A stretch of 64,000 bases of DNA from Chloroflexota bacterium (GCA_005889495.1 VBHA01000065.1:4961-68960); one strand, 5' to 3'; shown: positions 27,801 through 59,351, counted from the stretch's first letter. The notes: a model not told the origin generated them from the letters alone. Numbers and translations: made by a program.

Positions 27801-28814
27801 GTCGGCCGGAAGGCCGCTCATGATCGGGTTCCACGAGGCGCCGCCGTCGGAGCTCTTGTAGATCTTGTCGCTCCAGAACGAGGCATAGATGGTCAATGGG
27901 TTCTGTGGGTCGAGTCGGATGTCGGTCGCGCCGAGGGAGACCGCGGGGGCGGCCTTCAGCAGCGTCCACGTGACCGCGCCGTCGTGCGACTCCCAGATTC
28001 CGAACGTGGAGTGGACCGGGGGCGAGACCCTGCGGTCGCCGCCGCGGCCGCGCAGGATGGCCGCGTACACGTGGTTCGAGTCGTTGGGGTCGACCGCCAG
28101 GCGGGCCGTCGAGACGCCGAGGAAGAAGTCACCCGAGACGTGGGTCCAGGTAGCGCCGCCGTCCGTCGACCGGAGGATGCCGTTGCCGAAGTAGCTGTCA
28201 CCGGACAGCGCGCCTTCGCCCGTGCCCGCGTAGACGATGTTGTCGTCCTTGGGGGCGACGGCGAGAGCGCCGATCGCGGTCGAGGGAAGGTTGTCGGTCC
28301 TGGGCGACCAGGTCTTGCTCGTCGGGTTCCACAGCCAGATGCCGCCCTGCGCGGCGCCGAGGATGAACGTGCCGTCCTTGCGGATCGCCAGCGCGCCGAT
28401 GCGGCCGCTCTGCGCCGCGAACGCGCTGTCACTGCGCTGGACCTGGACGATCGGGTTTGGTCCGAGGGGAGACCAGTTGCCGGAGAAGGTGGTCGGTCCG
28501 GCGGGAGGCGGGTTCTTCAGCACCCTGGCCTGGTCGGCCGCCGCCTTGCGAAGGGCAACCGCCTGGTCGACGCTGAGCGGAGCGCTCCCGGCGAGGCGCC
28601 CGCTGATGAACGCCTGGTCGCGCAGCAGCAGCTGCGACTCCAGCTCGTCGTTCTGCTCCGGGACAACCGTTCCCGGGGCCAGCGTGGCCGTGTCCTCGCC
28701 TGCGGTCGATCCCGACGGCGCGGGCGTGTCCGCAAAGCCAGGAGCGGCCGCGGCAAGCGCCACGGCGAGAGTGACAACGAGTGCGCTGAGCGCACGCCAA
28801 CCACGCTTCCCCAT
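24846..28814 (-). CDS. large secreted BNR/Asp-box beta-propeller protein with Ig-like (DUF11/CARDB-type) domains and an unassigned C-terminal domain
   Basis: ATG 28814 lies after GGGGAAGGAAG. The signal peptide is MGKRGWRALSALVVTLAVALAAAAPGFA. At least 7 Asp-boxes are present (STDGGATW x2, SHDGAVTW, SSDGGASW, STDEGASW, TTDAGQSW, TYDGGAHW). A DUF11-like segment reads YTITLRNIGNATATGVTISDPIP. Confidence 0.85.
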   Translation of the reverse strand: MGKRGWRALSALVVTLAVALAAAAPGFADTPAPSGSTAGEDTATLAPGTVVPEQNDELESQLLLRDQAFISGRLAGSAPLSVDQAVALRKAAADQARVLKNPPPAGPTTFSGNWSPLGPNPIVQVQRSDSAFAAQSGRIGALAIRKDGTFILGAAQGGIWLWNPTSKTWSPRTDNLPSTAIGALAVAPKDDNIVYAGTGEGALSGDSYFGNGILRSTDGGATWTHVSGDFFLGVSTARLAVDPNDSNHVYAAILRGRGGDRRVSPPVHSTFGIWESHDGAVTWTLLKAAPAVSLGATDIRLDPQNPLTIYASFWSDKIYKSSDGGASWNPIMSGLPADADFAAGLTRFNIAISHPAGQGAVLYTGFDWVDTAHHHHAGRLFKSTDEGASWVEAGHGTGIDSVVDYCGTQCFYDNVIEADPNDPNVVFAAGSFGYNLSPPSGGIYRSTDGGATWKNLGWDLHPDFHALAFDPNDPAKILIGNDGGVYYSTSRGGRNNAGDALKAVTWQNLNGSVAPSNGAVTGRTNLQIGQFTSVAVVPSMLVPAGAQSLRYWGGTQDNGTLRKSVNSQTFFDMTSGDGGQVVVDQTDNNSCGFGACFVYGTFFGVSLYRITDGGAGFFTRRPILTGINTGDRSEFYIPVALNQLSTNQLFTATYRLYRTDNAKAPNAADVQFKAISGDLTSGCTGAAPNGARGCFISAIGIGGGTGVYTGSDDGLVYFSPDAMVTDTPTWTRVDQHSLGAGDKHSLPNRPVAWIAVDRSNDRIAYVGYNGYNAATPHQPGHVFKTTDAGQSWTDISGNLPDNPVNSLTIDPSYPNTLYAATDVGPLVTYDGGAHWGPLGAGIPAVAVDQVDLDTYDRVIAAGTHGRGAWSVTDSHSVPGLVVSKVDSGALVRGGSNIDYTITLRNIGNATATGVTISDPIPANTSFVSADSGGVNAGGTAKWSGLSVPSAGSVVVHLKVKIDPGLKSGVQSIVDDGVEATSAQGPSTSGSQTITPIAPLYRVTLTPASQLDGAHVGKSVTYNVTLDNTGFSADSYKMSSSGGTFPVSFFDATCATPLTTTGSVASGGSTSVCVKVDVPASAADGATSTATVTGTSAGSSAVSASGTVITKAVAVDTLVVDDDSFATSPVDVQKYYTDALTSAGKSFQVWDLGNDKNLPLNYLKSFKYVVWFTGNSYPSPLAPYERELKSYLDGAGNLFVSGQDLLDQSGGTTTFVHDYLHVTWDGSETQNDKATANVRGVPGTLTAGVGTVPYNHSVLGNDFEDEITPNGSAQVIFTDDNAQPDGLSFSGTYNVVFLAFPFEGYGSAAQRTDLINRVYAFFG

Positions 28815-29088
28815 CTTCCTTCCCCTCATGTGTTGCTGACGAGATCCGACGTCACCGGCCGAGACGGACCCACAAGGAGAGGTCCAGGGCCCAGAAGACA
28901 CCCAACCCCATCAACTTCTCCAGCGGCGTAGCGCCTGAATCGGCGGCCTGTATCCGCGGCCGCCTTCGAAGCCGAACTACTTTGGCGTAGCCAGGGCGGA
29001 AAAGTCAAGCGAGCCTTCAGGTGCCCTTCAGCAAACCAGCTTTGTGGAGCGCGTCCTGGCCCTGGCCTAACGTTTATCTCATCGCCCG

Positions 29089-31305
29089 ATGAAAGAGCAC
29101 GCCATGACGCCCTGGCGGACGTTGATCACCGCCGTCCATCCGCATCCCTCCGTGAAGATCAACCACGGGGCGACCTTTCTCGTCACCGACCAGCAAGGGG
29201 CAGTCCCTGCAGGCTCCGAGGGCGAGTACGGCCTCTACTCGTCCGACACGCGCTACCTCTCGCGCCACGAGCTGAGGCTGAACGGCAAGAGGCCCGAGTC
29301 GGTCGCTTCGGTCCGACTTTCGTTTCGCCACGCGAGGTGGCACGCGGTCGTCGACAGCATCGCCGGGCCGGGCGGCGACATGCGCGAGGCCCGGGTGGCG
29401 GTGACGATCGACCGGCTCATCAACCTGCACCAGATGCACGAGGACCTGACGCTGCACACGTACGCGCGGGCGCCCCAGACCGTGCTGCTGGAGATCGCGA
29501 TGGAGAGCGATTTCGCGGACCTGTTCGAGGTCCGCTACCGCTCCTGGCAGCGCCGGGCCGACCTGAACACCTGGTGGGTGGGGCCGGCCAGCCTCGAGAC
29601 CCGATACCAGAACGAGGACTTCGTCCGCCGCTGCCTGGTCCGAGCTCTGAGCCAGGTGAGCGGGATCACGTACGCGAACGGCGCGCTGCGAATCCCTGCC
29701 GACCTGGTCCCGGGCAAGGAGTGGAAGCTCTGCCTGCAGTACGACCTCCTCACGTCGGACGACGAGATGCCCGAGATGGCCCCGCGGTGCGTGTTCGCCC
29801 CGGGTGAGGACGACCCGATGCGCCTGGCGCGTGGCTGGCAGATGTCGGTGGCGCATGTTCAGCCGGCCGACGTCCGCCTGCAGTTCGCCTACGAGCGCGC
29901 GCTCGAAGACTTCGCGGCGCTGCGGCTGCACGAGCAGGAAGCCTCATTCGACCGCTGGATGCCCGCCGCAGGCCTGCCGTGGTTCATGGCCCTGTTCGGC
30001 CGGGACTCGCTGATCGCGTCGCTGCAGGCGATGGTCGCGCAGCCCTCGGTGGCGATGGGCACGTTGGAGAACCTGGCGCGCTGGCAGTCGACGGTGGACG
30101 ACCCTGAGCGCGACGCCGAGCCGGGCAAGATGCCCCACGAGCTCCGCGTCGGCGAGTGGGCCCACTTCGGAGTGGTGCCGCACCGGCCGTACTACGGCAC
30201 GGCCGACGCCACTCCTTTATATCTGCTGCTCCTGGCCGAGAGCTACCGGTGGACGGGCGACGCATCCGGCCTGGCCGGATTCCGGCAGGCGGCGGAGCGA
30301 TGTCTGGAGTGGGTGGACAGGCACGGGGACCGTGACGGCGACGGGTTCCAGGAGTACGCGCCTCGCACGCCGCGCGGGTATCGCAACCAGGGCTGGCGCG
30401 ACGCGCACGACGGCGTGCTCGACGAAGCAGGCGTCTTTCCCGAGCTCCCGATCGCGACGTCGGAGATGCAGGCCTACGTTTACGGCGCCAAGAGCCGGAT
30501 CGCGCCGCTGTTCGAAGCGTGGGGGGACGCCGCGACGGCGTTGCGGCTGCGCAGCGAGGCCGCGGAGCTTCGGCGCCGGTTCATCGACCGCTTCTGGATC
30601 GCCGAGACCGGCGAGCTCGCGTTCTTGCTCGACGGCTCGAAGAAGCCGGTCCGGACGGTGGTGTCGAACTCCGGGCACTGCATGTGGATGGGGATACTGG
30701 ACGAGGAGCGTGGTCGTGCCGCGGGCCGGAGGCTGATGCAGCCCGACATGTTCACGGGTTGGGGCCTGCGTGTCCTGTCCGATCAGCATCCTTCGTACGA
30801 CCCTCACTCCTACCAGCGCGGATCTGTCTGGCCCCATGACAGCGTGATCGCGGCCGCGGGACTGCGCCGGTACGGGATGACCGAAGAAGCCTGGACGATC
30901 CTCGACGGCCTGCTCGCGGCGGTGATGTGCTTCGACGACATCCAGATGCCGGAGCTCTTCGCGGGCCTGCCGAAGAACGAGTTCGCGGTGCCGGTGCCGT
31001 ACCGGATGGCGAACGTCCCCCAGGCGTGGGCCGCGGGGTCGGTGCTGCACATGGTGCGGATCCTGTTGGGGCTGGAGCCGGACCTTCCGGCGGGGCGGAT
31101 CTACCTGGACCCGGCGCTGCCCGCGTGGTGCTCGAGGCTGGAGCTGAAGGGGCTGAAGCTTGGGCGGCACCAGGTGAGGTTGGTGGTGGAGAGGAGGCCT
31201 GATGGGCGGCATTCGGTCGACGCGGAGGCGGACGGCCTGGAGGTCATGCGTGGCGTGCCGCCGTGGATGGAGATCGCGGCCGACCAGGTACTCAGCGGCG
31301 GGTGA
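29089..31305 (+). CDS. amylo-alpha-1,6-glucosidase / glycogen-debranching-like protein (GDE N-terminal + GDE_C)
   Basis: Motifs LFGRDSLIA, GKMPHE, YYGTADATPLY, GYRNQGWRDAHD and YQRGSVWPHD. Confidence 0.85.
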   Translation: MKEHAMTPWRTLITAVHPHPSVKINHGATFLVTDQQGAVPAGSEGEYGLYSSDTRYLSRHELRLNGKRPESVASVRLSFRHARWHAVVDSIAGPGGDMREARVAVTIDRLINLHQMHEDLTLHTYARAPQTVLLEIAMESDFADLFEVRYRSWQRRADLNTWWVGPASLETRYQNEDFVRRCLVRALSQVSGITYANGALRIPADLVPGKEWKLCLQYDLLTSDDEMPEMAPRCVFAPGEDDPMRLARGWQMSVAHVQPADVRLQFAYERALEDFAALRLHEQEASFDRWMPAAGLPWFMALFGRDSLIASLQAMVAQPSVAMGTLENLARWQSTVDDPERDAEPGKMPHELRVGEWAHFGVVPHRPYYGTADATPLYLLLLAESYRWTGDASGLAGFRQAAERCLEWVDRHGDRDGDGFQEYAPRTPRGYRNQGWRDAHDGVLDEAGVFPELPIATSEMQAYVYGAKSRIAPLFEAWGDAATALRLRSEAAELRRRFIDRFWIAETGELAFLLDGSKKPVRTVVSNSGHCMWMGILDEERGRAAGRRLMQPDMFTGWGLRVLSDQHPSYDPHSYQRGSVWPHDSVIAAAGLRRYGMTEEAWTILDGLLAAVMCFDDIQMPELFAGLPKNEFAVPVPYRMANVPQAWAAGSVLHMVRILLGLEPDLPAGRIYLDPALPAWCSRLELKGLKLGRHQVRLVVERRPDGRHSVDAEADGLEVMRGVPPWMEIAADQVLSGG

Positions 31306-31308
31306 ACG

Positions 31309-32427
31309 TTGTTGCGTCCTTGCCAGACCTCGTCGGTTGTATCCATAGTGGAGTCCCGGCGGATCGCGCTCATCGTCAGCCCGTGGTACCCCGTTCCCCC
31401 GACGGGCTACGGCGGCATCGAGCTCGTGGCCTACAACCTCGCCAGGGAGCTCACCGCCCAGGGTCACAAAGTGACCGTCCTCGGGCGCCAGGGATCCCAC
31501 GGGCCGTTTGAGACCGTCGCGCTAGCCCCCGAAAGCTGGCAGAAAGACCTGGGCAACCAGAACGGCATACCCCGCCACAACCTCTTTCTCTATCGCAGCT
31601 ACGAGACGGTGCGCCGGCGTTCGTTCGACGTCATCCACGACCACTCGGGCCTCATGGGCATCCTGGTCGCCTCGCAGGCCCGGCTGCAGGCGCCGGTCGC
31701 GGCCACGTTGCATGGGGCGCTCACCGAGGCCGAGGGGGACTTCCTCCGCGCGGTCGCGCGCCAGGTCAACCTGGTCGCCATCAGTCATGCCCAGCAGGCG
31801 ACCGTCGCCGGGGTGGAGTGGCGGGCCGTCGTGCACAACGCGATCGACCCGAACCAGTACCGCCCGATCACCAACGTGGCCGAGAAGGACGACTACCTGA
31901 TCGAGCTCGCCCGGATCAACCCCGACAAGGGACAACACATCGCCATCGAGGTGGCAAAGCGACTCAAGCGCCGGCTCGTGCTTGCGGGCAAGGTCGACCC
32001 CGAGGCGCAGGACTACTTCGAAGAGAGAATCAAGCCGAATCTCAACGGCCAGGTCGTCTGGCGCGAAAACGTGAAGGGCAAGGAAAAGGCGCAGCTCCTG
32101 GCGAAGGCGCGGGCGCTGATCTTTCCCATCCAGTGGGAGGAGCCTTTCGGCATGGCGATGGTCGAGGCGATGGTCAGCGGGACGCCGGTGATCGCTTTCC
32201 GGCACGGCGCCGCCGCGGAGCTGGTCGAACCCGGCGTCACCGGTTTCCTGGCCGACGACGTGGAAGGGATGCTGGATGCCTTTGAGCGCCTCGACGAGAT
32301 CGACCTGAAACGCTGCGCCGAGGTGGCGGCGGAACGCTTCGGACCGGCGCGCATGGCCGAGGGCTACATGAACGTCTACGAGCGAGCGATCGAGCAGGCT
32401 CAGTACAGCGAACCGCCCCTTAGCTGA
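31309..32427 (+). CDS. GT4-family glycosyltransferase
   Basis: The N-terminus reads IALIVSPWYPVPPTGYGGIE. The C-terminus reads EEPFGMAMVEAMVSGTPVIA (E-x7-E). The start may be GTG 31348. Confidence 0.85.
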   Translation: MLRPCQTSSVVSIVESRRIALIVSPWYPVPPTGYGGIELVAYNLARELTAQGHKVTVLGRQGSHGPFETVALAPESWQKDLGNQNGIPRHNLFLYRSYETVRRRSFDVIHDHSGLMGILVASQARLQAPVAATLHGALTEAEGDFLRAVARQVNLVAISHAQQATVAGVEWRAVVHNAIDPNQYRPITNVAEKDDYLIELARINPDKGQHIAIEVAKRLKRRLVLAGKVDPEAQDYFEERIKPNLNGQVVWRENVKGKEKAQLLAKARALIFPIQWEEPFGMAMVEAMVSGTPVIAFRHGAAAELVEPGVTGFLADDVEGMLDAFERLDEIDLKRCAEVAAERFGPARMAEGYMNVYERAIEQAQYSEPPLS

Positions 32428-34393
32428 TTCGTACTCCGACAGGCAGGCGGCCGGCTTTCACCTTCGTCCCTTCGACGGCAAACTCGAGCCGCTGGCCCGC
32501 GAAGTGGAGGCCGGTCACCTCGATCCGATTCCACATGCGCGTCTCGATGGGCGCGATCCGCAGCGTCTTCCGCCGGTGATCGGCCTCCAGGCCGAGGATC
32601 GATGCGACGCAGGTGAACATCGCGGCCGCCGACCACAGCTGCGGCGTGCAGGTGTTCCAGTACTCCGTGGGCGGCTCTTTGGGCGTGCGCTCATCGCCGC
32701 AGAAAAGTTCTGGGGGCCGGCGCATCGGAAACTCGATCGAAGCCTCGACGAGGGCCCTGGCGACGCGCTCGGCCTCGGCCGCAAAACCGTACTGGCGCAT
32801 CCCGGCCACCGCCAGCGCGGTGTCGAACGGCCACACAGAGCCGTTGTGGTAGCTGCGCGGGTCGTAGTTGGCGGCACGCTCGGAGAGGGTCCTGATGCCC
32901 CAACCCGAGAACATGTCGGGTGCGACGAGGCGCCGCGTCACCAGCTCGGCCTTCGTCCGGTCGAGGATCCGCATCCACAGGCAGTGTCCAGGGTTGGACG
33001 TGATCGCCTTGACCTGGTGCTTGTGACCGTCGAGCGCCTGGGCGATGAATTTTGCGTCCGGCATCCAGAAGTCGTGGTTGAAGCGGCGCTTCAGAGCCGC
33101 CGCGTGCTCCCGAAGCTCCGGCTTGCGGCGCGACATTCCGACCAGACCGCGATGCAGATAGGCCTGGACCTCGCACAGGGCGGCGGGTCGCAGCGCGTCG
33201 GTGCCGTCGGAGTTGGTCAGGGAGTCGTCGGAGTCCTTCCATCCCTGGTTGCGCGCCCTGCCGCCGCGGTACTCGATGTAGCCGTCGCCGTCGGAGTCTC
33301 CATACCTGGTGCACCACTCGAGCGCGGCGGCCGCCGCCGGCCACATCTCGTCCGCGAAACGGCGGTCGTGGGTCCAGTTCTCGGTTTCCGTCATCGCGCA
33401 CAGAAACAGCGCGGTGGCGTCGATCGTGCCGTAGAGGATGTGCGGCCACAACCCGCGCTCGACGACCTCGCCGTCGCGGACCTCGTGCAGGATCTTTCCG
33501 GGCTGCTCCTCGCTGCCCTCGTCGACCCGCGCGCCCTGGTGCGCGGCGAGGTAGCGCAGCACGCCGCGGGCGATGTCCGGGTTGACGTGGAGAAGAAGGA
33601 TCGAGCTGATGAGGGCGTCGCGGCCGAACGGGACCGCGAACCAGGGAAGCCCGGCTGCTGGGTAGAGGCCGCTCTCATGGCGGCCGCACAGGAACCGGAT
33701 GTCCTGGGTCGCCTGCTCGAGGACCTCGTTGAGCGCGGCGTTGTCGGTTCGCACCGACATGCACTCGGCCGCCCAGCGCGGGTAGACCTCCTTGGCCTCC
33801 TCGAGCCCCGCGACGAAATCGACGACCGGGCGGTCCGACTCCGGGACGACGTCGAGGCGGAGCGTGAACTCGTCGCCGGGCAGGAGGCGGAGCTGGTGCT
33901 TCAGACCTTCTGGAAAGGCGATCACCCGCGTGGCCCGCCGGTCGCGGACGAAACGCACGCCCTCCACGGTCTTCGTCGGCATGGCCTCGTCGGGGCTGGC
34001 CAGCTCAGGCACGGCGCCCCGGATCCCGAGCATGGCAGCGAAGTCGGTCGCCACCTCGATCTCCATCACCGCGTCGGCGATCGCCGCGCCCGAGTTCGTG
34101 ACGGTGATCCGCTCGTGCAGGCCCGACTCGACGAAGCGGACCCTGCTCACATGCACACTGCCGCCGTCGAGCTCGAACGTGGCGCTGCTGTCGTCGGCCT
34201 GGAAACCGATCACCGCGGGCTCGACGCCGTTGATCAAGAGCCGCAGCCGGGAAAGGATGCGGGTGTCGCCGTCCCAGACGCCGTCGCCATGGAACTCGCC
34301 CGGGTTGATCGATCCGTCGCGAGCGGAGACGACAAAAAAGCGGTCGCGCTTGAGCATGACGCGCTCGGATATGAGTTGTCCGGACGAGATCAA
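32420..34393 (-). CDS. amylo-alpha-1,6-glucosidase / glycogen-debranching-like protein, second paralog
   Basis: Motifs PFGRDALIS, GKILHEV, YGTIDATALF, ARNQGWKDSDD and YHNGSVWPFD. It is convergent with GT4, with an 8-nt overlap. Confidence 0.85.
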   Translation of the reverse strand: MISSGQLISERVMLKRDRFFVVSARDGSINPGEFHGDGVWDGDTRILSRLRLLINGVEPAVIGFQADDSSATFELDGGSVHVSRVRFVESGLHERITVTNSGAAIADAVMEIEVATDFAAMLGIRGAVPELASPDEAMPTKTVEGVRFVRDRRATRVIAFPEGLKHQLRLLPGDEFTLRLDVVPESDRPVVDFVAGLEEAKEVYPRWAAECMSVRTDNAALNEVLEQATQDIRFLCGRHESGLYPAAGLPWFAVPFGRDALISSILLLHVNPDIARGVLRYLAAHQGARVDEGSEEQPGKILHEVRDGEVVERGLWPHILYGTIDATALFLCAMTETENWTHDRRFADEMWPAAAAALEWCTRYGDSDGDGYIEYRGGRARNQGWKDSDDSLTNSDGTDALRPAALCEVQAYLHRGLVGMSRRKPELREHAAALKRRFNHDFWMPDAKFIAQALDGHKHQVKAITSNPGHCLWMRILDRTKAELVTRRLVAPDMFSGWGIRTLSERAANYDPRSYHNGSVWPFDTALAVAGMRQYGFAAEAERVARALVEASIEFPMRRPPELFCGDERTPKEPPTEYWNTCTPQLWSAAAMFTCVASILGLEADHRRKTLRIAPIETRMWNRIEVTGLHFAGQRLEFAVEGTKVKAGRLPVGVRIS

Positions 34394-34423: not shown

Positions 34424-37400
34424 CTAGGTCGCCGTGCTTATCGCGGTTGTTTTTGCCGACGCTTCGAATGCAGGCCGTGAACCGAGTGCGTAGCTCGTCG
34501 ACTCGTTCCGAGCGAGCAGCTCGACCGCCATCGCTTCGAGGTCCCGCACGCGCTGGTTGGCGCGGATCGCCTCCCGGATCGACAGGATCCCGACGGCCGG
34601 GTGGCGCTTCTCGATCACGTGGCGAAGCATGTTGAGGTGCGCGTTGTCGGGCACGCCCGGCTCGCGGATCCGGCGGACCGCGGCGCGCACGGTGGCCTGC
34701 GTACCGTCGATCGCCTCACCCTTGCCGAAGTCGAACTTGTAGCTCGGGCTCCTGCCGGCCGCGCGCTTCTCGCCGCTGAGCTTGATCCACTTCGCGTTCT
34801 CGGCACCCTTGCCGACGTCGATCACCAGACGCACCGACCGGCCCCGGTAATCGAAATGCGCGTTCATCCGCGCGTAGCTCTCGCGCTGCCCGGTCAGGCC
34901 CTCGTGCCGGCCGATGAGAAGCGGCGCGTCGGCGTCGAGCTTGATGCGGTCGATCGGCGTGAGCAGCGAGATGATCGCGAATGCGTGGGGGATGAGGTCG
35001 GCGATGACGCCGATGTCTGCGGCGGCGCCGGTGAGCGGCTGCTCCTCGAGGATCTCGATGCGAATCTCCTCCACGCTGTCCAGGAAGTTGCGCAGCGTGC
35101 GTTCCTCCGTCAGCAGCATCGCCAGCAGGCGGACCTCGAGCTTGAAGTAGTAGTGGTCCGCGGCGACGATCTCGACGCCGCCCTGGGCGCTGTCGAGGAA
35201 CCTCCGGTACTCGTCGGGCGGAGCGCCCAGCGGCTTCTCGATCAGGACCACGTCGCTGAGGTCGTAGTAGCGCTGGAGCGTAGGCAGGTGCGTGGCCGCG
35301 GGCGTCGCGATGTAGGTGATGACATACGAGCTCGACTCCAGCTCGCGCTCCAGCTGGTCGCGTGCCGGCGACGAGTGGCTGTCCCAGTAGAAGGAGTCGC
35401 CATGCGTCCTCACCTCTTCCTCCTTGACCCCGAGCCGGTCGCGGGAGCCGGGCGAGTCCTGCTCGACCACGAGGGTGCGGAAGTTGAAGAACTGCTTGAG
35501 CGTGAGCAGGTGCTGGTACGCCTTCTGGCCCCACTGGCCGAAGCCGATGAGGACGAAGTCCTTCTGCAGGTGTCGCTCCTCCTCGGCGAGTGCGTGGAGG
35601 CGCGCGTTCTTGATCGCCACCGCGGCCTGCACCGCCAGCGCTTGCGCCCGCTGCACCTCCTCGGGCCGGAACGCGCGGGTCCGATTGCGTTCCGCGAGCA
35701 CCGCCGCGCCGATCGCCTGGTCGTCGGCGATGAGGGGCAGGGCCATCAGCGAGCGCACGCCAAAGGTGCGCACGTACGCGGGGTCGACCTCCGAGCTGGC
35801 GGATGCGTCCTCGATGACGACCGGCTGCTCGCGGTCGAGGACCTCGAAAAGGAAGGAGGCTTGCGACCGTTCGCCGTGCTGGCGCCGCCACAGCTCCTCG
35901 AGGTCGGACGCGGCCGCGCCGTACCACCCCTGGCGGTCCTCTTCATACAGCGCGATCTGGCAGAGCGATGCGTCGACCAGGCGGGCCATGTTGTGGGCGA
36001 CCAGGGTGAGCGTCTGGTCGAGGTCGATCGAGCTGGCGATCGCCTTGCTGACATCCGCCACCAGCTCGAGCTGCTCCGCATGCCGTTGGGCCTCTTCGTA
36101 CAGCCGCGCCGTCTCGACGGCCACCGCCAGCTGGCCCGCCGCGGCCCGCAGAGCCTCGACCTGGCCCCAATCGGGACGCCGCTGGTCGGAGCGGTGGTAG
36201 CCGACCTCGAGCACACCGGTGGCCCGGCGTGACTGGTCGCTGCCGAACGGCACGAAGACCCGCACCAGGTCCTTGTGGCCGCCACGCTCGAAGACCTCGC
36301 CCGCCAGGGTGAAGGGAGGCTGGTCGCTCGCGTGCGCCTTCTCGCCGATGAGGCACGCGAGCACCTGGCCTTTCACCATCCCGTCGCCGTACACGACCGG
36401 GACCTCGGTCCAGGCCGAGGCGACCGGGATACCGCCGGCGATCACGTCGGCGTGCTCGCCCGACGGCATCGGCCCGACGATGACCGGCTGCCAGGACCGC
36501 GCCACGTACACCAGCACGTCCTCCTCCGCCAGGACGCGGTTCTCGTCCATGGCCCAGCGCGGGACCTTTTTTCCGGGATGGGCCGAGCTCCCCGACTCGA
36601 TCGCCGCGGCGGTCGCTGCGCCCGCGGCCATGCGCACCGCGGTGGCCCCGTCGTCTCGCTCCTCGAGCAGGTAGACGGTCGCGAAGTTGAAGTCGAACTC
36701 GGGCACCTGCGAATCGGTGAGGTGCCCCACCACCGCGTCGATGACCTGGTGCCGGGAGGCTCCCGGCTTGAGCATCGCGGCGGTCATGTCGCCGAGGGCG
36801 CTTAGCAGGCGGTTGCTGTTCTCGAGGTCGGCGATCAGGCGCTGGGAGGCGAGTGCCCCGCCGATGAGCTGCGCCCCCGCCTTGAGCATCTCGTCGGTCG
36901 AGGGAGCGCGCCGCACCGTCGCGAGCCGGTCGCGGCTCAGGAGGACCAGGTAGCCGTGAGGCTCGTCCTGCTTTCCGAGCGCATAGCTGGCGACCGGGTG
37001 CAGGTCGGACTCGGCGGTCGCCTCCCCGATCGTCTTCTCGAGCGCCTTCTCCCATGGGGTGGACGGGTCGCCGCGGTCGACGCGTGTGGGCGCGGCGACG
37101 CGCAGGTGGGCGGTGACGAGCTCGAGGTGCGAGCGCTGGTGGCCGAACTGGTAGATCGCCGCGCCGTCCAGGTTGCTCGCCATCAACAGGTCTGCAAGCG
37201 CGATGGAGAGCAGCCGGCGCAGCTCCTTGGCGTCGGTCCGCGCGTCGCCGACGGGCGTGGTCAGCAAAGACGTGAGCCTGGACAGCCCGTCGAGCGCGGC
37301 TCGCTCGGCGCCTTCCAGCGCGTCCTGGATCAGCCCGGCCGCCGTGGCCGCGCGGCGTTCCAGCTCGCGCAGGCGGCTGTCGTCCGGCGCCTTCTCCTTG

Positions 37401-37906
37401 TTCCTGTAGTTCAGGTAGATCAAGCCGAGCAGCCGGTCGCCCGCGAGCAGGGGCAGGCCGAGCGTCGACTGGACCTGGTAGCGCCGGATGAAGGTCGAGT
37501 CGATCTCCGCGGGCGCATTGCGAGCGACCAGGCGCTGGCGCGTCACCGTCAGCCAGACCGTGGATCCGTACTGGTGCACCCCCAGCTCGTCCGGGACCTT
37601 GCCCTGCTTCTCGTCGGAGAGGTAGCGGGTGAGCTGCTCGTGCATGTCGGTCAGGGAGTCGAGCAGGCTCTCCTGCGGCTGGCCGGTGGCGAACGGCGCG
37701 TAGTAGGTGTGGGTCGACTCCTCGTAGAGGAAGATCGAGACGATGTCCGCGCTCGAGGCGTGCTGAAAGTCCGCGATCACGCCGCGGAGGACCGCGGCGA
37801 GGCCTGAGTTGGCTTCGACTGGCGGGCGAATCAATTCGGCATTGGGATCATCACACGGATTCCACCACCCGAGCGGCCCCTCCGGCGCTGCGCGCCACCT
37901 CCCCAT
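34424..37906 (-). CDS. multi-GAF (about 4) sensor protein fused to a C-terminal G6PD/Gfo-Idh-MocA-like Rossmann dehydrogenase domain
   Basis: Repeated GAF-like modules end in ...LLGLIYLNY, ...GYLVLLS, ...TGVLEVGY and ...AIGAAVLAE. These are followed by VLIGFGQWGQKAYQHL, VVLIEKPLG, VAADHYYFKLEV and GVIADLIPHAF. The start is uncertain (ATG 37906 inside a repeat, or TTG 37834). Confidence 0.8.
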   Translation of the reverse strand: MGRWRAAPEGPLGWWNPCDDPNAELIRPPVEANSGLAAVLRGVIADFQHASSADIVSIFLYEESTHTYYAPFATGQPQESLLDSLTDMHEQLTRYLSDEKQGKVPDELGVHQYGSTVWLTVTRQRLVARNAPAEIDSTFIRRYQVQSTLGLPLLAGDRLLGLIYLNYRNKEKAPDDSRLRELERRAATAAGLIQDALEGAERAALDGLSRLTSLLTTPVGDARTDAKELRRLLSIALADLLMASNLDGAAIYQFGHQRSHLELVTAHLRVAAPTRVDRGDPSTPWEKALEKTIGEATAESDLHPVASYALGKQDEPHGYLVLLSRDRLATVRRAPSTDEMLKAGAQLIGGALASQRLIADLENSNRLLSALGDMTAAMLKPGASRHQVIDAVVGHLTDSQVPEFDFNFATVYLLEERDDGATAVRMAAGAATAAAIESGSSAHPGKKVPRWAMDENRVLAEEDVLVYVARSWQPVIVGPMPSGEHADVIAGGIPVASAWTEVPVVYGDGMVKGQVLACLIGEKAHASDQPPFTLAGEVFERGGHKDLVRVFVPFGSDQSRRATGVLEVGYHRSDQRRPDWGQVEALRAAAGQLAVAVETARLYEEAQRHAEQLELVADVSKAIASSIDLDQTLTLVAHNMARLVDASLCQIALYEEDRQGWYGAAASDLEELWRRQHGERSQASFLFEVLDREQPVVIEDASASSEVDPAYVRTFGVRSLMALPLIADDQAIGAAVLAERNRTRAFRPEEVQRAQALAVQAAVAIKNARLHALAEEERHLQKDFVLIGFGQWGQKAYQHLLTLKQFFNFRTLVVEQDSPGSRDRLGVKEEEVRTHGDSFYWDSHSSPARDQLERELESSSYVITYIATPAATHLPTLQRYYDLSDVVLIEKPLGAPPDEYRRFLDSAQGGVEIVAADHYYFKLEVRLLAMLLTEERTLRNFLDSVEEIRIEILEEQPLTGAAADIGVIADLIPHAFAIISLLTPIDRIKLDADAPLLIGRHEGLTGQRESYARMNAHFDYRGRSVRLVIDVGKGAENAKWIKLSGEKRAAGRSPSYKFDFGKGEAIDGTQATVRAAVRRIREPGVPDNAHLNMLRHVIEKRHPAVGILSIREAIRANQRVRDLEAMAVELLARNESTSYALGSRPAFEASAKTTAISTAT

Positions 37907-39125
37907 GAATGGGGAGGAGCCTAGATTTCGCGACGGCGCCGAGCCAGGAGGCGCTGGATCGGGGGTGGCGGGTGAAGGTCTGGCGGTCCACCGCGACCAG
38001 GCCGAACGTCGGGGCGTAGCCCAGCGCCCACTCGAAGTTGTCGAGCAGCGACCAGTAGAGGTAACCCCGGACGTCGATGCCCTCGGCCATGCATGCAAGC
38101 GTCTCGCGCAGCGCGACGTCGATGTAGGCGATCCGCTTTTCGTCGTTGGAGGTGGCGATCCCGTTCTCGGTCACCAGGATGGGCACACCCGGACAGCTAT
38201 GGTGGGCACGCCGGATCGCCCCGCCCAGGGCCTTGGGGTGGAACTCGTAGCCCATCTGGGTCGTCGCGTCCGTCTCCTCCAGCTCGCGGTCCATGTCACT
38301 CCAGTCGGAGCCGGGGCTCCGCGACCCCTCGGGGCCGAAGCGGAAACGCGTGTAGGTCTGGACGCCGATGAAGTCATCCTGTCGCGCGAGCTCGAAGAAC
38401 CAGTCGTTGACGCGCGACTCGAGCTCGAGGGATGAGCTGCCGGGTTGGGCCCCGTCCTCGTACTGGAGGTCTGGCAGGGCCAGCGTCACGCCGGTCGGGA
38501 CGCCGGCCCGCGAGCGGATCGCCGCGGCGCCGCGACGGTGCGCCTCCAGGAGGTTGTCGACCGCCCGCTGCGCGCCGTCCCTGTCGTCGGTGTGGCCCGG
38601 CGGGTTGATTCCGAGCAACCATCCGCTCGACCCCAGGCCCTGAGGCTCGTTGATCGTGCACGCGTACGCGATCCGGTCTCCGAGCGCAGCCGCCACCCGG
38701 TCGCAGTAGCGCTCGAACAGGCTCGGGAAGCTCTCGGCGGCGATCCCGCCCTGCTCGTGCAGCCAGCGCGGGACGGTGAAGTGGTGAAGGGTGACGATCG
38801 GCGCCACGCCGTGCTCGTGGCATGCGTCGAGCATCCGCCGGTAGTGCGCCAGCTCGGCCCGCGAGAACTCGCCCTCGGCCGGCTCGATGCGTGCCCACTC
38901 GAGCCCAAAGCGAAAGCACTGCAGCCCGAAGCCCGCCAGCATCGCCACATCGTCGCGATAGCGGTGATAGAAGTCACACGCATCTCCCGAGGGTTCGCGG
39001 CATGGCGTCGAGGCGATGTGCTCCCACCACCACCAGTCGCTGTTGGTGTTGCCGCCCTCGGTCTGGTAGGCGGAGATCGAGGCGCCGAACAGGAAGCCGT
39101 CGGGAAACCGCAAGGGCTCGTTCAT
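37851..39125 (-). CDS. GH1-family beta-glucosidase
   Basis: Motifs FPDGFLFGASISAYQTEGG, TINEPQ and LVTENG. Start at ATG 39125. The last ~20 codons run into repeat copy C. Confidence 0.9.
   Translation of the reverse strand: MNEPLRFPDGFLFGASISAYQTEGGNTNSDWWWWEHIASTPCREPSGDACDFYHRYRDDVAMLAGFGLQCFRFGLEWARIEPAEGEFSRAELAHYRRMLDACHEHGVAPIVTLHHFTVPRWLHEQGGIAAESFPSLFERYCDRVAAALGDRIAYACTINEPQGLGSSGWLLGINPPGHTDDRDGAQRAVDNLLEAHRRGAAAIRSRAGVPTGVTLALPDLQYEDGAQPGSSSLELESRVNDWFFELARQDDFIGVQTYTRFRFGPEGSRSPGSDWSDMDRELEETDATTQMGYEFHPKALGGAIRRAHHSCPGVPILVTENGIATSNDEKRIAYIDVALRETLACMAEGIDVRGYLYWSLLDNFEWALGYAPTFGLVAVDRQTFTRHPRSSASWLGAVAKSRLLPIHGEVARSAGGAARVVESV
37862..37917 (-). repeat. tandem-hairpin repeat family 3, copy C
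   Basis: The minus strand reads CCTCCCCAT-TC-ATGGGGAGG (37917-37898), then GGCGC-GCA-GCGCC (37896-37884), then GGAGGGGC. It overlaps the GH1 3' end and the possible start of the GAF gene. Confidence 0.7.
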
Positions 39126-39184
39126 CCGGCCGAGTCTAGCCACGCATGAGCGGGCTCTGCGCGCGCCCGGCGACAAAGCCAAAG

Positions 39185-39213
39185 TTGACAACCTTTCGGG
39201 AGCGAACTAGTAT
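39185..39213 (+). promoter_or_regulatory. sigma-70-like promoter for the ABC sugar-uptake operon
   Basis: TTGACA (39185-90), a 17-nt spacer, then TAGTAT (39208-13), about 120 nt upstream of ATG 39334. Confidence 0.5.
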
Positions 39214-39241: not shown

Positions 39242-39333
39242 GTTGGCGTGTCGCCAAGCGGGCCGATGCCCCCCGGCATTGGGGTTGTTCGGGGCCCCCG
39301 GGCAGGGACAAGTTTTTGGGAGGAACGCACAGC

Positions 39334-40683
39334 ATGCCCGAGGTCTTTAGAAGGCTGAGCTCCAGGGCGATCGCGCTGAGTCTCGGCACGTTACTTCTCG
39401 CGGCCGCCTGTTCTTCGGGCGGGAACAACAACAACAGCCAGGGCGCGTCGTCGACCGACGTCACGGTCTGGACCGCCTGGGGTGGCGCGGAGCTCAAGGC
39501 GTTCAAAGACGTCCTGGCGCCGTTCGAGGCGAGCCAGCACATCAAGGTCCACATCACCACCAACCGCGACTCGACCAACCAGATCGCCAACGGCATCGCC
39601 GCCGGGACCGACCTGCCTGACATCGCCCCCGGACCGACCGACCCGACCCAGGTCAAGAGCTGGGTCAGCAAGGGCGCCATCAAGCCGGTTGAGACCGCGC
39701 TCGGCGACCAGTTCAGCTCCTACATCTCGAACACGTATCCCGCGCTGACCACGGCGCCCGGCGGCGCCACCGACGACCCCTACATCGGCATCATCGGCGG
39801 CAAGCACTACGAGCTGATGATCAAGACCCAGGTCAAGGGTCTGCTCTGGTACAACAAGAAGGTCTTCACCGGTCAGGCTCCGACGAGCTTCGACCAGCTG
39901 CTTGCGATCAACCCCTCGCAGTACAAGGCCAAGAACCTGTTCTGCGCCGGGTTCGAGTCCGGAGCCGCGTCGGGCTGGCCGGCCAGCGACCAGATCGACA
40001 ACATCATCATGCGGCAGTCCGGCGACCAGGTCTACACCAACTGGATCCAGGGCAAGGTCAAGTTCACCTCGAACGAGATCAAGCTCGGCTACCAGACCTT
40101 CCTCAAGGAAGTGTCTGACCAGACCGTCTACGGTGGCCGCAACACGGCCCTGTCGACGAACTTCGCCAAGGCCGGCGACCCACTCTTCAAGCAGCCGTCG
40201 GGGTGTCTGTTCCTGGAGCAGGCGACGTTCATCACCTCGTTCTTCCAGCAGGACTTCCCGAGCCAGAACCTGAAGGCCGGCACGGACTTCGACTTCTTCG
40301 CCCACCCGAGCATGGGCAACTCGCAGTACGACGGCAACGTCAACGGCTTCTACGACAATTTCGCGATGTACAACGACACGCCGGCGGCGCGCGCGCTGAT
40401 GAAGTACATGGCCACGAAGGACGCGCAGCAGATCTGGGCGAACGACGGTGGCACGCTGGGCGCGATCAAGTCCCTGAACTACACCGACCCGATCTTCAAG
40501 CGCGCGGCCGACGTGGCCGCCAGCGCCAAGAACCTGCTCGTCACGGCGGGCGACTTCATGCCCTCCGACATGCAGAAAGCCTTCTGGCAGTCGCTGCTCA
40601 ACGTGACCCGCGACCCGTCGAGCCTGGATTCGCAGCTGAGGCACCTGGACCAGGTGCAAGCAGCGTCGTACACGGCCAGCTAG
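39334..40683 (+). CDS. ABC transporter sugar-binding lipoprotein (solute-binding family 1)
   Basis: ATG 39334 lies after GGGAGGA. The lipobox is LLLAAAC-SSGG. Its length and composition fit sugar SBPs. Confidence 0.9.
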   Translation: MPEVFRRLSSRAIALSLGTLLLAAACSSGGNNNNSQGASSTDVTVWTAWGGAELKAFKDVLAPFEASQHIKVHITTNRDSTNQIANGIAAGTDLPDIAPGPTDPTQVKSWVSKGAIKPVETALGDQFSSYISNTYPALTTAPGGATDDPYIGIIGGKHYELMIKTQVKGLLWYNKKVFTGQAPTSFDQLLAINPSQYKAKNLFCAGFESGAASGWPASDQIDNIIMRQSGDQVYTNWIQGKVKFTSNEIKLGYQTFLKEVSDQTVYGGRNTALSTNFAKAGDPLFKQPSGCLFLEQATFITSFFQQDFPSQNLKAGTDFDFFAHPSMGNSQYDGNVNGFYDNFAMYNDTPAARALMKYMATKDAQQIWANDGGTLGAIKSLNYTDPIFKRAADVAASAKNLLVTAGDFMPSDMQKAFWQSLLNVTRDPSSLDSQLRHLDQVQAASYTAS

Positions 40684-40699
40684 CTCGGTTTTGATCGGT

Positions 40700-40731
40700 C
40701 GGGGCGGAGCGTTTCCGCCCCGGCCGCTTTT
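40700..40731 (+). terminator. intra-operon stem-loop / partial terminator after the SBP gene
   Basis: CGGGGCGGA-GCGTT-TCCGCCCCG (40700-40722) is followed by GCCGCTTTT. Confidence 0.5.
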
Positions 40732-40755
40732 GGCTCTGACAAGGAGATAGGCGGG

Positions 40756-41721
40756 GTGGATCAGATCATCACAGCGGTGGTCGCCGTGGTCGGCGTTCCG
40801 CTCGTGCTTCTCGGCTACATCATCCTGGGCGAGCAGGTCATCGAGAGGTTGCCCGACAAGCTCCAGGAGTCGATCCGGCCGTATTTCTGGGCCCTTCCGG
40901 CGATCGGGTTCGCGACGGTTTTCATGGTCTACCCGGTCGTACGCACCGTCGTCATCAGCTTCCGCAACAGCGACGACACGGACTGGATCGGCCTCGCCAA
41001 CTACAAGTACTTCGTCACGTTCCCAGACACGCTGACGGCGCTCCGCAACAGCCTTCTGTGGCTGGTGTTCTACACCTCGATCAGCGTCTTCCTGGGCCTG
41101 GTCATCGCCATCCTGCTCGACCGCGTGCGTTACGAGTCCCTGGCCAAGATCGCGATCTTCCTGCCGGTCCCGATCAGCGCGGTCGCGGCTTCGATCATCT
41201 GGAAGTTCATGTTCGACTACCAGCCTCCCGGAACGCCCCAGACCGGGACCTTGAACGCCATCCTCGGGTTGGCCGGGCGCGATCCGGTGGCATGGCTGGT
41301 CAACTCGACCACCAACAACGCGGCCCTCATCTTCGTCGGCATATGGACCATCACCGGGTTCTGCATGGTGATCATCTCGGCGAGCCTCAAAGCGATCAGC
41401 TCCGAGGTCCTCGAGGCGGCGAGAATCGATGGCGCGAACGAGTTTCAGATCGTCCGTCTCGTCATCACGCCGCTGCTGTGGCCGACCATCACCGTCGTCG
41501 GCACCACGATGATCATCAACGCGCTGAAGACGTTCGACATCGTCTATGTGATGACGAACGGCGCCTATGACACCGACGTCATCGCGACCCGGATGTTCAG
41601 CCAGCTGCAGAGCGCGCACTACGGTCGCGCGGCCGCCGTCGGCGTGGTCCTGTTCATCGCCATCGTTCCGCTCTTGATAGTCAACATCCGTCGCTTCCAG
41701 CAGCAGGAGGAGCAGCGATGA
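40756..41721 (+). CDS. ABC sugar transporter permease (MalF/UgpA-like)
   Basis: Six TM segments and the EAA-type loop SSEVLEAARIDGANEFQIVRLVITPLL. Confidence 0.9.
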   Translation: MDQIITAVVAVVGVPLVLLGYIILGEQVIERLPDKLQESIRPYFWALPAIGFATVFMVYPVVRTVVISFRNSDDTDWIGLANYKYFVTFPDTLTALRNSLLWLVFYTSISVFLGLVIAILLDRVRYESLAKIAIFLPVPISAVAASIIWKFMFDYQPPGTPQTGTLNAILGLAGRDPVAWLVNSTTNNAALIFVGIWTITGFCMVIISASLKAISSEVLEAARIDGANEFQIVRLVITPLLWPTITVVGTTMIINALKTFDIVYVMTNGAYDTDVIATRMFSQLQSAHYGRAAAVGVVLFIAIVPLLIVNIRRFQQQEEQR

Positions 41722-42623
41722 GCGCAGAGCAGGTGACGACTCGTCGCGAATCCGCCGTCGGGGCCGGTGTGTCCACCCTGGACCGGATCGGTTACCGCCT
41801 GCAGCGCCTGCCGCTGCACCTGGTGATCATCATCCTGTGCGCCATCTGGCTCGTGCCCACGGTCGGCATGATCATCAACTCGTTCCGCTCAGTCCAGGAC
41901 ATGGGCCAGTCAGGATGGTGGACCACCCTGTTTCCGCCTCACGGGTTCACGCTCGACAGCTACAAACAGGTGCTCAACATCGAAGGCGTCGCGCCGTCGA
42001 TCCTCTACAGCATCCTGATCACGATCCCGGCCACGGTCATCCAGCTCGCGATCGCGACCATGGGCGCTTACGCGTTTGCGTGGATGAAGTTTCCAGGCAG
42101 GAACCTCTTCTTCATCGTCATCGTCGGCCTGATGGTGGTTCCGATCCAGATGACGCTGATCCCGGTGCTGCAGATCTTCAAGCTGATCCACATCAGCGGC
42201 ACCATTCCGGCCGTCTGGCTCGCCCACTCGGGCTACGGCCTTCCCTTCGAGGTCTTCCTGCTGAGGAACTATCTGGGCGGACTGCCCCGCGAGATCTTCG
42301 AGTCCGCGGAGGTCGACGGCGCCGGCCACGCGGTGCGGTTCCTGCGCATCGCCGTCCCGATGACCATCCCGGCGATCGCCTCGCTGACCATCTTCGTGTT
42401 CCTGGGCATCTGGAACGACCTCCTGGTCGCCCTGACCTTCCTGGGAGTGAGCCCATACCGTCCTTTCACGGTCGTGATCACCGGGCTGGTGACCTCGTTC
42501 GGCGGCGGCTGGCAGTTCCTCACCGCCGCGGCCGTGCTGCAGATGTCGCTTCCGCTCGCCGTCTTCATCTTCCTGCAGCGCTACTTCGTGCGAGGCATCA
42601 CCAGCGGATCGGTCAAGGGTTAG
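41718..42623 (+). CDS. ABC sugar transporter permease (MalG/UgpE-like)
   Basis: The EAA-type loop is IFESAEVDGAGHAVRFLRIAVPM. It overlaps the upstream permease by 4 nt. Confidence 0.9.
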   Translation: MSAEQVTTRRESAVGAGVSTLDRIGYRLQRLPLHLVIIILCAIWLVPTVGMIINSFRSVQDMGQSGWWTTLFPPHGFTLDSYKQVLNIEGVAPSILYSILITIPATVIQLAIATMGAYAFAWMKFPGRNLFFIVIVGLMVVPIQMTLIPVLQIFKLIHISGTIPAVWLAHSGYGLPFEVFLLRNYLGGLPREIFESAEVDGAGHAVRFLRIAVPMTIPAIASLTIFVFLGIWNDLLVALTFLGVSPYRPFTVVITGLVTSFGGGWQFLTAAAVLQMSLPLAVFIFLQRYFVRGITSGSVKG

Positions 42624-57843: not shown

Positions 57844-58172
57844 CCAAACATTCCCTTCCCGCCGAGCAACGTACCGGCCACCCCGGTGGCGACAGTTATC
57901 GCAATCATCGCAATACCGTGCCATGTCTGGCCTTTGATGATGTTCGTGATCCCGAGACCAACGCCTGCCTGCACCAACAGTCCGGGGAAAACAAAGAACG
58001 GCAGCACGGCAAAAATGTAGCCCACCACCAGCAAACGTCTGTCGAGCGGGTCCATGCGTTGTTTTTCGTCCTGGCGGTGGTACTCGGAAATTGGCCGCCA
58101 CTGCTGCCCGTTCCACCACCATTGGCCGTCAGGAGAGATCTTTGGTCGCTTCTCCAGCAGGACGTCTTGCAC
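57840..58172 (-). CDS. small membrane protein
   Basis: 110-aa ORF. The N-terminus is Trp-rich (DGQWWWNGQQWRP). Two TM helices follow. It lies in the lower-GC stretch. Confidence 0.5.
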   Translation of the reverse strand: MQDVLLEKRPKISPDGQWWWNGQQWRPISEYHRQDEKQRMDPLDRRLLVVGYIFAVLPFFVFPGLLVQAGVGLGITNIIKGQTWHGIAMIAITVATGVAGTLLGGKGMFG

Positions 58173-58297
58173 TTGCCCACCTCCAGTCGATGGCCCCTTC
58201 CCTTGCTTGCTGGCGGCTGAGAGGCATCTTGAGCGCTACCAGCGCCGGCGCGCTGCCGGCACGAACATCCAAAATCGTTTCCCGGCGAAGACCTCAG

Positions 58298-59317: not shown

Positions 59318-59351
59318 CGTCTGCTGCCTTCATAACAAAGTCAGTAACAGG

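Follow-up and report, generated by a model that had tools for sequence, protein, structure and literature searches.

The question raised by one gene in a 64,000-nucleotide stretch of Chloroflexota bacterium DNA (GCA_005889495.1, VBHA01000065.1:4961-68960; hereafter the window) is what an array of GAF sensor domains does in front of a domain that resembles a sugar dehydrogenase. The gene lies on the minus strand at 34424..37906, and a reading made from its sequence alone (the sequence-only reading) had described the product as about four GAF-like modules fused to a domain on the fold shared by glucose-6-phosphate dehydrogenase (G6PD) and the Gfo/Idh/MocA oxidoreductases. Our analysis shows that the C-terminal ~380 amino acids are a Rossmann plus beta/alpha dehydrogenase of the G6PD/Gfo-Idh-MocA superfamily, that its motifs are retained, and that the fusion is conserved across a bacterial phylum, Candidatus Dormibacterota. 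The most probable reading, to which we would assign a probability of roughly 0.55, is that of a ligand-gated, NAD(P)-dependent dehydrogenase of a sugar or sugar phosphate, regulated allosterically by the GAF array.

Residues are numbered throughout from the 1160-amino-acid version of the protein, which starts at the ATG at 37906. The reading frame and the features of its enzyme half are as follows.

34424..37906, minus strand, stop codon included: the whole open reading frame (open reading frame list of the window, start-codon survey, homologue lengths)
35162..35557, minus strand: dinucleotide-binding Rossmann half, residues 784-915 (PF01408 just under its cut-off, alignment to Gfo/Idh/MocA structures and G6PD, model)
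35528-35545, minus strand: GFGQWG, in the Rossmann half
35462-35464, minus strand: E815, at the end of strand 2 of the Rossmann half
35288-35308, minus strand: ATPAATH, in the Rossmann half
35231-35239, minus strand: EKP, in the Rossmann half
34502..35161, minus strand: beta/alpha substrate half, residues 916-1135 (hidden Markov model alignment to the G6PD structure 8i37, hhalign to the relatives' profile, invariance)
35141-35158, minus strand: DHYYFK, in the substrate half
35045-35047, minus strand: E954, in the substrate half
34985-35011, minus strand: GVIADLIPH, in the substrate half
34871-34882, minus strand: ESYA, in the substrate half
34805-34813, minus strand: GKG, in the substrate half

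A family profile, a domain model searched with Foldseek and a chain of profile-profile alignments together bear out the placement of the C-terminal region on the G6PD/Gfo-Idh-MocA fold. Searched as a single sequence against the PDB, the domain reached only E ~0.3, to Gfo/Idh/MocA structures. The profile of 21 family members (A1) found the H. pylori G6PD 8i37 as its best PDB match (E=0.0084, across EKPLG, DHY and IG..D..PH), with Gfo/Idh/MocA entries next at E ~0.09 over the Rossmann part. An AlphaFold (AF2) model of the domain (predicted local distance difference test, pLDDT, 79.4; predicted template-modelling score, pTM, 0.70) was matched best in Foldseek by 8i37 (E=1.1e-18, template-modelling score, TM, 0.74) and by Leishmania G6PD (3.5e-17), and Gfo/Idh/MocA enzymes ranked after the G6PDs (4fb5 and scyllo-inositol / L-glucose dehydrogenase, ~1e-14 to 1e-13). 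In Pfam, the GFO_IDH_MocA model PF01408 scored 20.3 bits on the full-length protein and 22.0 bits on the isolated domain, the cut-off being 24; it matched 20 of the 21 family members weakly (best E=2e-5) and is present as a precomputed match in a few homologues. The models for the C-terminal part of Gfo/Idh/MocA, PF02894 and PF22725, had no match at E<=1 in any of the 21. The domain is a separate branch of the superfamily, in neither Pfam family by threshold. The profile searches and structure prediction proposed by the sequence-only reading have thus been run, and they return matches to the G6PD fold by structure, though the Pfam thresholds for canonical G6PD are not passed. That reading had also considered that profile searches might place the C-terminus in a common signalling output domain; the Pfam and NCBIfam scans show no kinase, cyclase, helix-turn-helix domain or similar there, and they reveal no output domain besides the dehydrogenase. 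A weak match to HEPN_STY4199 (E ~0.01-0.03, 35 residues) was taken as chance.

Beyond its own family, the domain has distant kin. A word-indexed search with the C-terminal domain returned the same family only, and remote relatives were reached only when a profile was searched exhaustively against 1.84 billion representative proteins, which gave 163 matches at E<=1e-3. About 30 of the best 150 of these 163 belong to the same family; the others are remote relatives, with E from 1e-14 upward. An alignment of 50 remote relatives (A2) has invariant G..G, EKP, DH and D...H columns, and its members match GFO_IDH_MocA (36/50), G6PD_N (20/50) and G6PD_C (2/50). The A2 profile recovered full-length G6PDs at E=1e-27, its best Gfo/Idh/MocA match being at 2e-11. 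By hhalign, A1 pairs with A2 at 100% probability (E=1.6e-44), and the alignment of 345 columns keeps all the motifs in register. The public names of the relatives run from 'Gfo/Idh/MocA family oxidoreductase' to 'glucose-6-phosphate 1-dehydrogenase'. Like the target domain, the G6PD-like members of A2 (e.g., the P0261/P0264 clade) carry GxG, (I/V)EKP, DHYxxK, GxIxDxxPH, ETxA and VGKG, but they are at most ~20% identical to it, none has a GAF domain, and their partner domains and gene neighbourhoods are different. Those partner domains are cupin-type glucose-6-phosphate isomerase-like, 6-phosphogluconolactonase, HAD phosphatase and radical-SAM domains, and the first three hint at sugar-phosphate chemistry in the wider clade.

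Some of these relatives deserve mention in their own right. P0274, P0286, P0289, P0307 and P0322, of 700-825 amino acids and one of them from Ca. Hadarchaeum, combine a cupin-type glucose-6-phosphate isomerase-like N-terminus with a G6PD-like domain; the resemblance of the N-terminus shows as a weak PF06560 match in one member and was judged by eye from sequence in the others. In P0324 the G6PD-like domain is joined to 6-phosphogluconolactonase, and in P0279 to a HAD phosphatase. These fused relatives may be uncharacterised sugar-phosphate oxidation modules. P0264 (2353-3840 in L083:950-11840), which belongs to the clade closest to the target domain, lies amid genes for a ParE toxin, a PD-(D/E)XK protein, RadC and a UvrD-type helicase/nuclease, surroundings that look like a mobile or defence island; its sister P0261 (L084) has an ordinary metabolic context. 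A role in anti-phage defence, raised by the setting of P0264, was set aside, as neither the target nor its relatives has a PADLOC match and the neighbourhood of the target is metabolic.

The four motif strings that had been quoted for the domain are all present, VLIGFGQWGQKAYQHL at residues 785-800, VVLIEKPLG at 886-894, VAADHYYFKLEV at 914-925 and GVIADLIPHAF at 966-976, and by the family profile the last three align with 8i37 in the blocks given above, just as the sequence-only reading had paired them. Profile, structure and conservation all speak against a chance resemblance. In the HMMER alignment, IEKPLG (889-894) pairs with EKPLG of 8i37, and the D, H, Y and K of ADHYYFKLE (916-924) line up with those of RIDHYLGK; neither segment varies within the family. 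H974 pairs with the His of QNHLLQ and D970 with the Asp preceding it, the D-x3-H spacing requiring a one-residue gap against the D-x4-H of G6PD. Through the relatives' profile, the motifs align to DHYLGK, E239, D258/H263 and GK360 of human G6PD, which we take to be D200/H201/Y202/K205, E239, D258/H263 and K360. It is these residues that supply the His/Asp catalytic pair of G6PD and bind its sugar phosphate. The match proposed between the glycine loop and the GxxGxxG of G6PD (GATGDLAxRK) stands only in part. The loop falls in the fingerprint region of G6PD, and only via the relatives' profile alignment, but the coenzyme fingerprint GxxGDLx itself is not kept: the sequence is GFGQWGQ, a GxGxxG loop with Gln replacing Asp.

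The signatures described for G6PD are RIDHYLGKE, EKPxG and GxxGDLx (PMC6862599), and those described for scyllo-inositol dehydrogenase, a Gfo/Idh/MocA enzyme, are K106 of EKP, D191 and H195 (PMC5969746). The target carries the Gfo/Idh/MocA signature, with EKP at residues 890-892 and G966-x3-D970-x3-H974, and as a whole its motifs are a mixture, DHYxxK and the GK lysine being of the G6PD type and GxGxxG and D-x3-H of the Gfo/Idh/MocA type. The acidic residue at the end of strand 2, E815, suggests a preference for NAD+ over NADP+. This follows a general rule for Rossmann folds, and NADP-dependent G6PDs place an Arg at that position.

Compared with the known enzymes, the target is like G6PD (Zwf; 8i37 of H. 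pylori, 2bhl of human, 1dpg of L. mesenteroides) in its two-lobed Rossmann plus beta/alpha fold, its EKPxG and DHYxxK motifs, its GK lysine and an Asp/His pair with its His aligned to the catalytic one. It differs in being only ~12-15% identical and ~100 residues shorter, and in having GxGxxG for GxxGDLx, D-x3-H for D-x4-H and an acidic residue for the Arg; moreover, we know of no G6PD that carries a GAF array like this one of 780 amino acids. With Gfo/Idh/MocA enzymes (PF01408 plus PF02894/PF22725; 5ya8, a scyllo-inositol / L-glucose dehydrogenase, and 4fb5) it shares the fold, EKP, D-x3-H and GxGxxG, but it stays under the PF01408 cut-off, lacks a match to the C-terminal models, is fused to GAF domains and has the DHYxxK block and GK lysine, neither of which is, to our knowledge, a feature of that family.

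The sensor half consists of four alpha/beta modules in the full-length AlphaFold model, with long helices between them at 176-216, 337-378, 580-625 and 748-778.

37307..37801, minus strand: module 1, GAF domain, residues 36-200 (PF01590, hhalign to module 4, pLDDT ~80)
36842..37231, minus strand: module 2, GAF-sized alpha/beta module of unverified identity, residues 226-355 (flanking long helices as in the other modules)
36107..36754, minus strand: module 3, probable GAF domain with insertions, residues 385-600 (sub-threshold GAF_2 match, modelled strand/helix order)
35606..36028, minus strand: module 4, GAF domain, residues 627-767 (PF13185, PF01590, weak NCBIfam PtsP/NifA matches, Foldseek)
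35558..35665, minus strand: connecting helix, residues 748-783 (helix 748-778, then strand 784-787 in the model)

Of the "about four GAF-like modules" that had been proposed, two are certain GAF domains and one is probable, and module 2 is without detectable GAF similarity. Module 1, scanned alone, scores 30.3 bits against PF01590, above the cut-off of 22.4, and in hhalign comparisons among the four modules it pairs with module 4 at 95% probability. Module 4 alone scores 61.1 bits against PF13185 and 59.6 bits against PF01590; the 86.7 bits that PF13185 gives on the whole protein is a score over two stretches, the best of which covers residues 627-765. Module 4 is most like the GAF domains of PtsP and NifA, as judged by weak NCBIfam matches to their N-terminal regions, and the single GAF structures 3trc and 3ci6 (PtsP type) match at TM 0.82 in Foldseek. 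Module 3 has a GAF_2 match of 22.9 bits (E=1e-4), under the cut-off, with a GAF-like order of strands and helices in the model (pLDDT 70-88). It shows no link to the other modules by hhalign, and it is missing from the 914-amino-acid relative P0243, so that the number of modules varies. For module 2, no GAF similarity was found by Pfam on the segment, by hhalign against the other modules, by profile against the PDB or by Pfam on eight module-2 sequences, and it can be called only GAF-sized. Within the full-length model, pLDDT is 70-90 in modules 1, 3 and 4 and 25-56 in module 2.

In the PDB, the full-length model is matched best by the tandem-GAF segments of PDE5A, PDE2A, PDE6 and CyaB2 (E=1e-13 to 5e-11 over 420-510 columns), and its secondary-structure pattern agrees with a tandem arrangement. 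The target shares with PDE2/5/6/10/11, CyaB1/CyaB2 and PtsP (EI-Ntr) the arrangement of N-terminal GAF domains, long helices and a C-terminal catalytic domain. Those proteins have one or two GAF modules, whereas the target has four modules and lacks the NKFDE motif for cyclic nucleotides, and its output is a sugar-dehydrogenase fold rather than a nucleotide-signalling or phosphotransfer enzyme. The helix leaving GAF 4 leads straight into the first Rossmann strand, and its NARxHAxxEEExHxQKD segment (N767-D783) is invariant in homologues down to 49% identity, which argues that the two halves work together. The domain order and linker helices of the model, the Foldseek matches and the invariant linker all agree with the earlier description of a GAF array fused to a dehydrogenase-like domain.

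The fusion is encoded by an uninterrupted open reading frame on the minus strand (34424..38098), in a window of ~67% G+C. The ATG at 37906 gives 1160 amino acids and overlaps the upstream gene of glycoside hydrolase family GH1 (stop 37851-37853) by 56 nucleotides, while a TTG at 37834 gives 1136 amino acids and lies 16 nucleotides past the GH1 stop. The TTG is the more likely start because 1136 amino acids equals the length of the closest homologues, and apart from this probable shift the coordinates given earlier, 34424-37906, were right. The ATG at 37906 directly precedes GGGAGGTGG. No obvious ribosome-binding site is seen before the TTG at 37834, though homologue lengths agree with that start.

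The database holds 362 homologues of the full-length protein. Among the best 120, identity is 79-92% and length 1110-1166 amino acids, and those that bear on the start codon have 1122-1147 amino acids with 97-98% coverage. They come from metagenome-assembled genomes of Candidatus Dormibacteraeota under the name 'GAF domain-containing protein', occasionally 'GAF domain-containing protein/predicted dehydrogenase'. When each species was represented by one genome, the fusion was found in at least 128 species-level genomes; the best 80 of these 128 are mostly Dormibacterota or 'Chloroflexi bacterium' metagenome-assembled genomes from soil, including Ca. Dormiibacter spiritus and Ca. D. inghamiae, and the few other genome labels are presumably mis-binned. 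This recurrence of the full-length frame, in both the database proteins and the species genomes, rules out an artefact of assembly or gene fusion. The fusion is kept in the more distant P0242 and P0243 (49-57% identity), the motifs are kept in 81-82 of 82 related loci examined, and the median identity is 89% in the catalytic half versus 76% in the sensor half. In one long-read-style contig (L002:8079-11785), the homologous gene is split into several open reading frames and many of its neighbours are fragmented too, which points to frameshift errors of assembly and to the 594-amino-acid P0182 being a fragment rather than a short isoform.

No description of a GAF-G6PD or other GAF-dehydrogenase fusion, or of this protein in Dormibacterota, was found in the literature searched. 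The architecture that the sequence-only reading did not recognise is common within one phylum, where it carries only generic annotation. The building blocks and the principle of a GAF-regulated enzyme are well known; it is the combination of GAF and dehydrogenase that was not found described in the sources searched.

How might such a protein work? We picture a cytoplasmic multi-domain enzyme in which four GAF-type modules would lead through the invariant helix into a two-lobed dehydrogenase. A small ligand would bind one or more of the GAF modules, and its binding would shift the helices of a putative parallel dimer so as to open or close the active site, by analogy with PDE2/5/6 and CyaB1/2. 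The dehydrogenase would then oxidise C1 of a sugar to the lactone, the most plausible substrate being a sugar phosphate such as glucose-6-phosphate. Oxidation at C1 is expected because the glycine loop, the EKP lysine, DHYxxK, Asp-x3-His and the GK lysine are retained, and a sugar phosphate is favoured by DHYxxK, by GK and by the fusions seen in the relatives.

Several observations weigh against a GAF-gated sugar-phosphate dehydrogenase. First, the direct sequence link to G6PD (E=0.008) is marginal, and the strong link runs via an intermediate profile that contains some true G6PD-like proteins. Neither G6PD_N (PF00479) nor G6PD_C (PF02781) matched the window protein at E<=1, and among the 21 family members G6PD_N matched weakly (E=0.016) in only three and G6PD_C in none. 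Second, judged by profile matches, the nearest clade outside the family (A4) is about equally far from G6PD and from Gfo/Idh/MocA, matching 1tlt over the Rossmann/EKP part (E=0.003) and 8i37 over EKP..DHY..PH (E=0.009). Third, the D-x3-H spacing and the Gfo-type glycine loop would suit a non-phosphorylated sugar equally well. Finally, on the sensor side, the searches established only two of the four modules as GAF domains, and an NKFDE-type motif for cyclic nucleotides is absent from residues 1-780 (regular expression N[KR]x[DE][EDQ]). The full-length model is also too mediocre (pLDDT 62, pTM 0.35) for communication between the domains to be read from it.

The genes around the target bear on the choice of substrate, and the principal neighbours are these.

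37851..39191, minus strand: GH1 beta-glucosidase-family gene, upstream (PF00232, E=2.6e-76)
32420..34393, minus strand: GDE/MGH1-like glycoside hydrolase, downstream, 30 nucleotides past the target stop (PF14742, PF22422, PF06202)
31309-32427, plus strand: GT4 glycosyltransferase, convergent with the GH1-target-GDE cluster (Pfam)
29089-31305, plus strand: second GDE/MGH1-like gene, convergent with the GH1-target-GDE cluster (Pfam)
39316..42623, plus strand: sugar ATP-binding cassette (ABC) importer, solute-binding protein and two permeases, divergent (PF13416, PF00528)

Pfam thus confirms that the gene sits between GH1 and the GDE/GT4 genes. GH1, the target and the GDE/MGH1-like hydrolase share one strand, with gaps of 16 and 30 nucleotides. 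Counting only related loci with enough flanking sequence, 36 of 61 have GH1 as the adjacent upstream gene and 45 of 69 have a GDE2-type gene as the adjacent downstream one, in both cases on the strand of the target, and in 16 of 69 the convergent neighbour is GT4; the ABC importer upstream of GH1 is conserved in related loci, and GT4 and the second GDE-like gene are conserved neighbours in many. The deeper branches have unrelated neighbours: an ABC-2 transporter, an alpha/beta hydrolase and an amino-acid kinase in Ca. Dormiibacter (L076/L077), a LacI regulator and a metallophosphoesterase in L079, and an HD-domain gene in L002. The glycan context is an association within one sub-lineage, neither phylum-wide nor defining, and this lineage-specific linkage to GH1 and GDE was ruled out as proof of substrate. 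The two GDE_N_bis / MGH1-like paralogues (29089-31305 and 32420-34393), which flank GT4, are ~32% identical to each other. The second is missing in some related genomes (e.g., L001), and there the convergent GT4 gene adjoins the target directly.

This neighbourhood supplies part of the case for the best-surviving alternative, a GAF-regulated dehydrogenase of the Gfo/Idh/MocA type acting on a non-phosphorylated sugar, inositol or glycoside rather than on a sugar phosphate. Such an enzyme could, for example, oxidise glucose or a beta-glucoside that the GH1 and GDE-like hydrolases free and the adjacent ABC system takes up, and the tight packing of GH1 and GDE on the same strand beside a sugar importer is consistent with it. 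So are the facts that GFO_IDH_MocA is the only Pfam family reached, in all but one of the 21 members, that the domain has the G966-x3-D970-x3-H974 spacing and a GxGxxG loop, and that Foldseek matches it at ~1e-13 to scyllo-inositol / L-glucose dehydrogenase. However, DHYxxK and the GK lysine belong to the G6PD signatures and contact both the phosphate and the sugar of glucose-6-phosphate (PMC6862599). G6PDs also rank first among the structural matches, and with the relatives' profile their E-value is better by 16 orders of magnitude. Moreover, deeper branches in which the gene is intact (L076, L077, L079 and L002) do not have the GH1/GDE synteny. We regard this alternative as possible, though on balance unlikely.

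The sequence-only reading had suggested either control of a sugar oxidation step by a small ligand or a dehydrogenase fold recruited as a sensor. In the second case, the domain would be a non-catalytic sensor or interaction module. The protein would then sense NAD(P)(H) or a sugar phosphate in addition to the GAF ligands, and its effect would pass through protein-protein contacts. Gal80, NmrA and OpcA, a partner of G6PD, are precedents for such a use. Gal80, a fold recruited for regulation, is among the Foldseek matches; the G6PD-OpcA complex 9emm is among the structural matches too, the matched chain being G6PD and not OpcA. The C-terminal tail (residues 1080-1125) is very highly conserved and could mark an interaction surface, and the protein has no recognisable signalling output. 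Yet all expected catalytic and cofactor residues are invariant over at least 80 species, where pseudoenzymes usually lose some catalytic residues, and no partner gene is conserved across the phylum. Because every catalytic-type residue is invariant, we favour regulated sugar oxidation, and a sensor-only role appears quite improbable. A bilin enzyme, in which a biliverdin-reductase-like domain (also of the Gfo/Idh/MocA fold) would be joined to bilin-binding GAF domains as in phytochromes, is highly improbable: Foldseek does match the domain to Synechocystis biliverdin reductase (E ~3e-12) and the full-length model to phytochrome GAF-PHY modules, but both fall well below G6PD and the sugar dehydrogenases, the GAF modules resemble PtsP/NifA and PDE types, Pfam and NCBIfam scans found no PAS/PHY domain (no search was aimed at the chromophore-binding Cys-His motif), and DHYxxK and GK, for which we know of no role in biliverdin reductase, are present.

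Elsewhere in the window, a stretch at 57850-60250 has a G+C content of 0.59 versus ~0.68 in the remainder and may be acquired DNA; it contains, on the minus strand, a 339-amino-acid open reading frame with an HEFGH zinc-peptidase motif (58298-59317) and a 288-amino-acid one with an OmpR-type winged-helix C-terminus (59352-60218). A 1351-amino-acid protein with BNR/Sortilin-Vps10-type repeats and a DUF11 domain, encoded at 24846-28901 (minus strand), is probably a large secreted or surface protein, and its gene adjoins that of a LuxR/GerE-type response regulator (24041-24727, minus strand). The 64-kb window contains no tRNA genes and no Rfam families at gathering threshold.

In summary, a ligand-gated dehydrogenase of a sugar or sugar phosphate remains the reading we prefer, and it has a bolder extension that we hold to be doubtful. 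In Dormibacterota, oxidative sugar-phosphate catabolism could begin with this protein, perhaps in place of a canonical Zwf, with carbon flow from stored or imported glucans gated by a metabolite or second messenger through the four-module GAF array. If so, it would be a one-protein metabolic switch for entering and leaving dormancy in oligotrophic soil bacteria, the first GAF-gated dehydrogenase of central metabolism, and the first member to be characterised of a third branch, intermediate between G6PD and Gfo/Idh/MocA. GAF domains gate signalling enzymes such as phosphodiesterases, cyclases, kinases and the phosphotransferase PtsP, and their control of a sugar dehydrogenase, if true, would carry GAF regulatory logic into core carbon metabolism. 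The catalytic domain belongs to an uncharacterised branch that bridges G6PD and Gfo/Idh/MocA, and one characterised member would help to annotate the Dormibacterota proteins (362 database matches, at least 128 species genomes) and the scattered, inconsistently labelled archaeal and bacterial relatives. Dormibacterota are abundant, uncultured bacteria of soil and Antarctic desert, and storage carbohydrates are believed to underlie their persistence. A strongly conserved, putatively ligand-gated sugar oxidiser that adjoins glucan-processing genes offers a concrete and expressible handle on their physiology.

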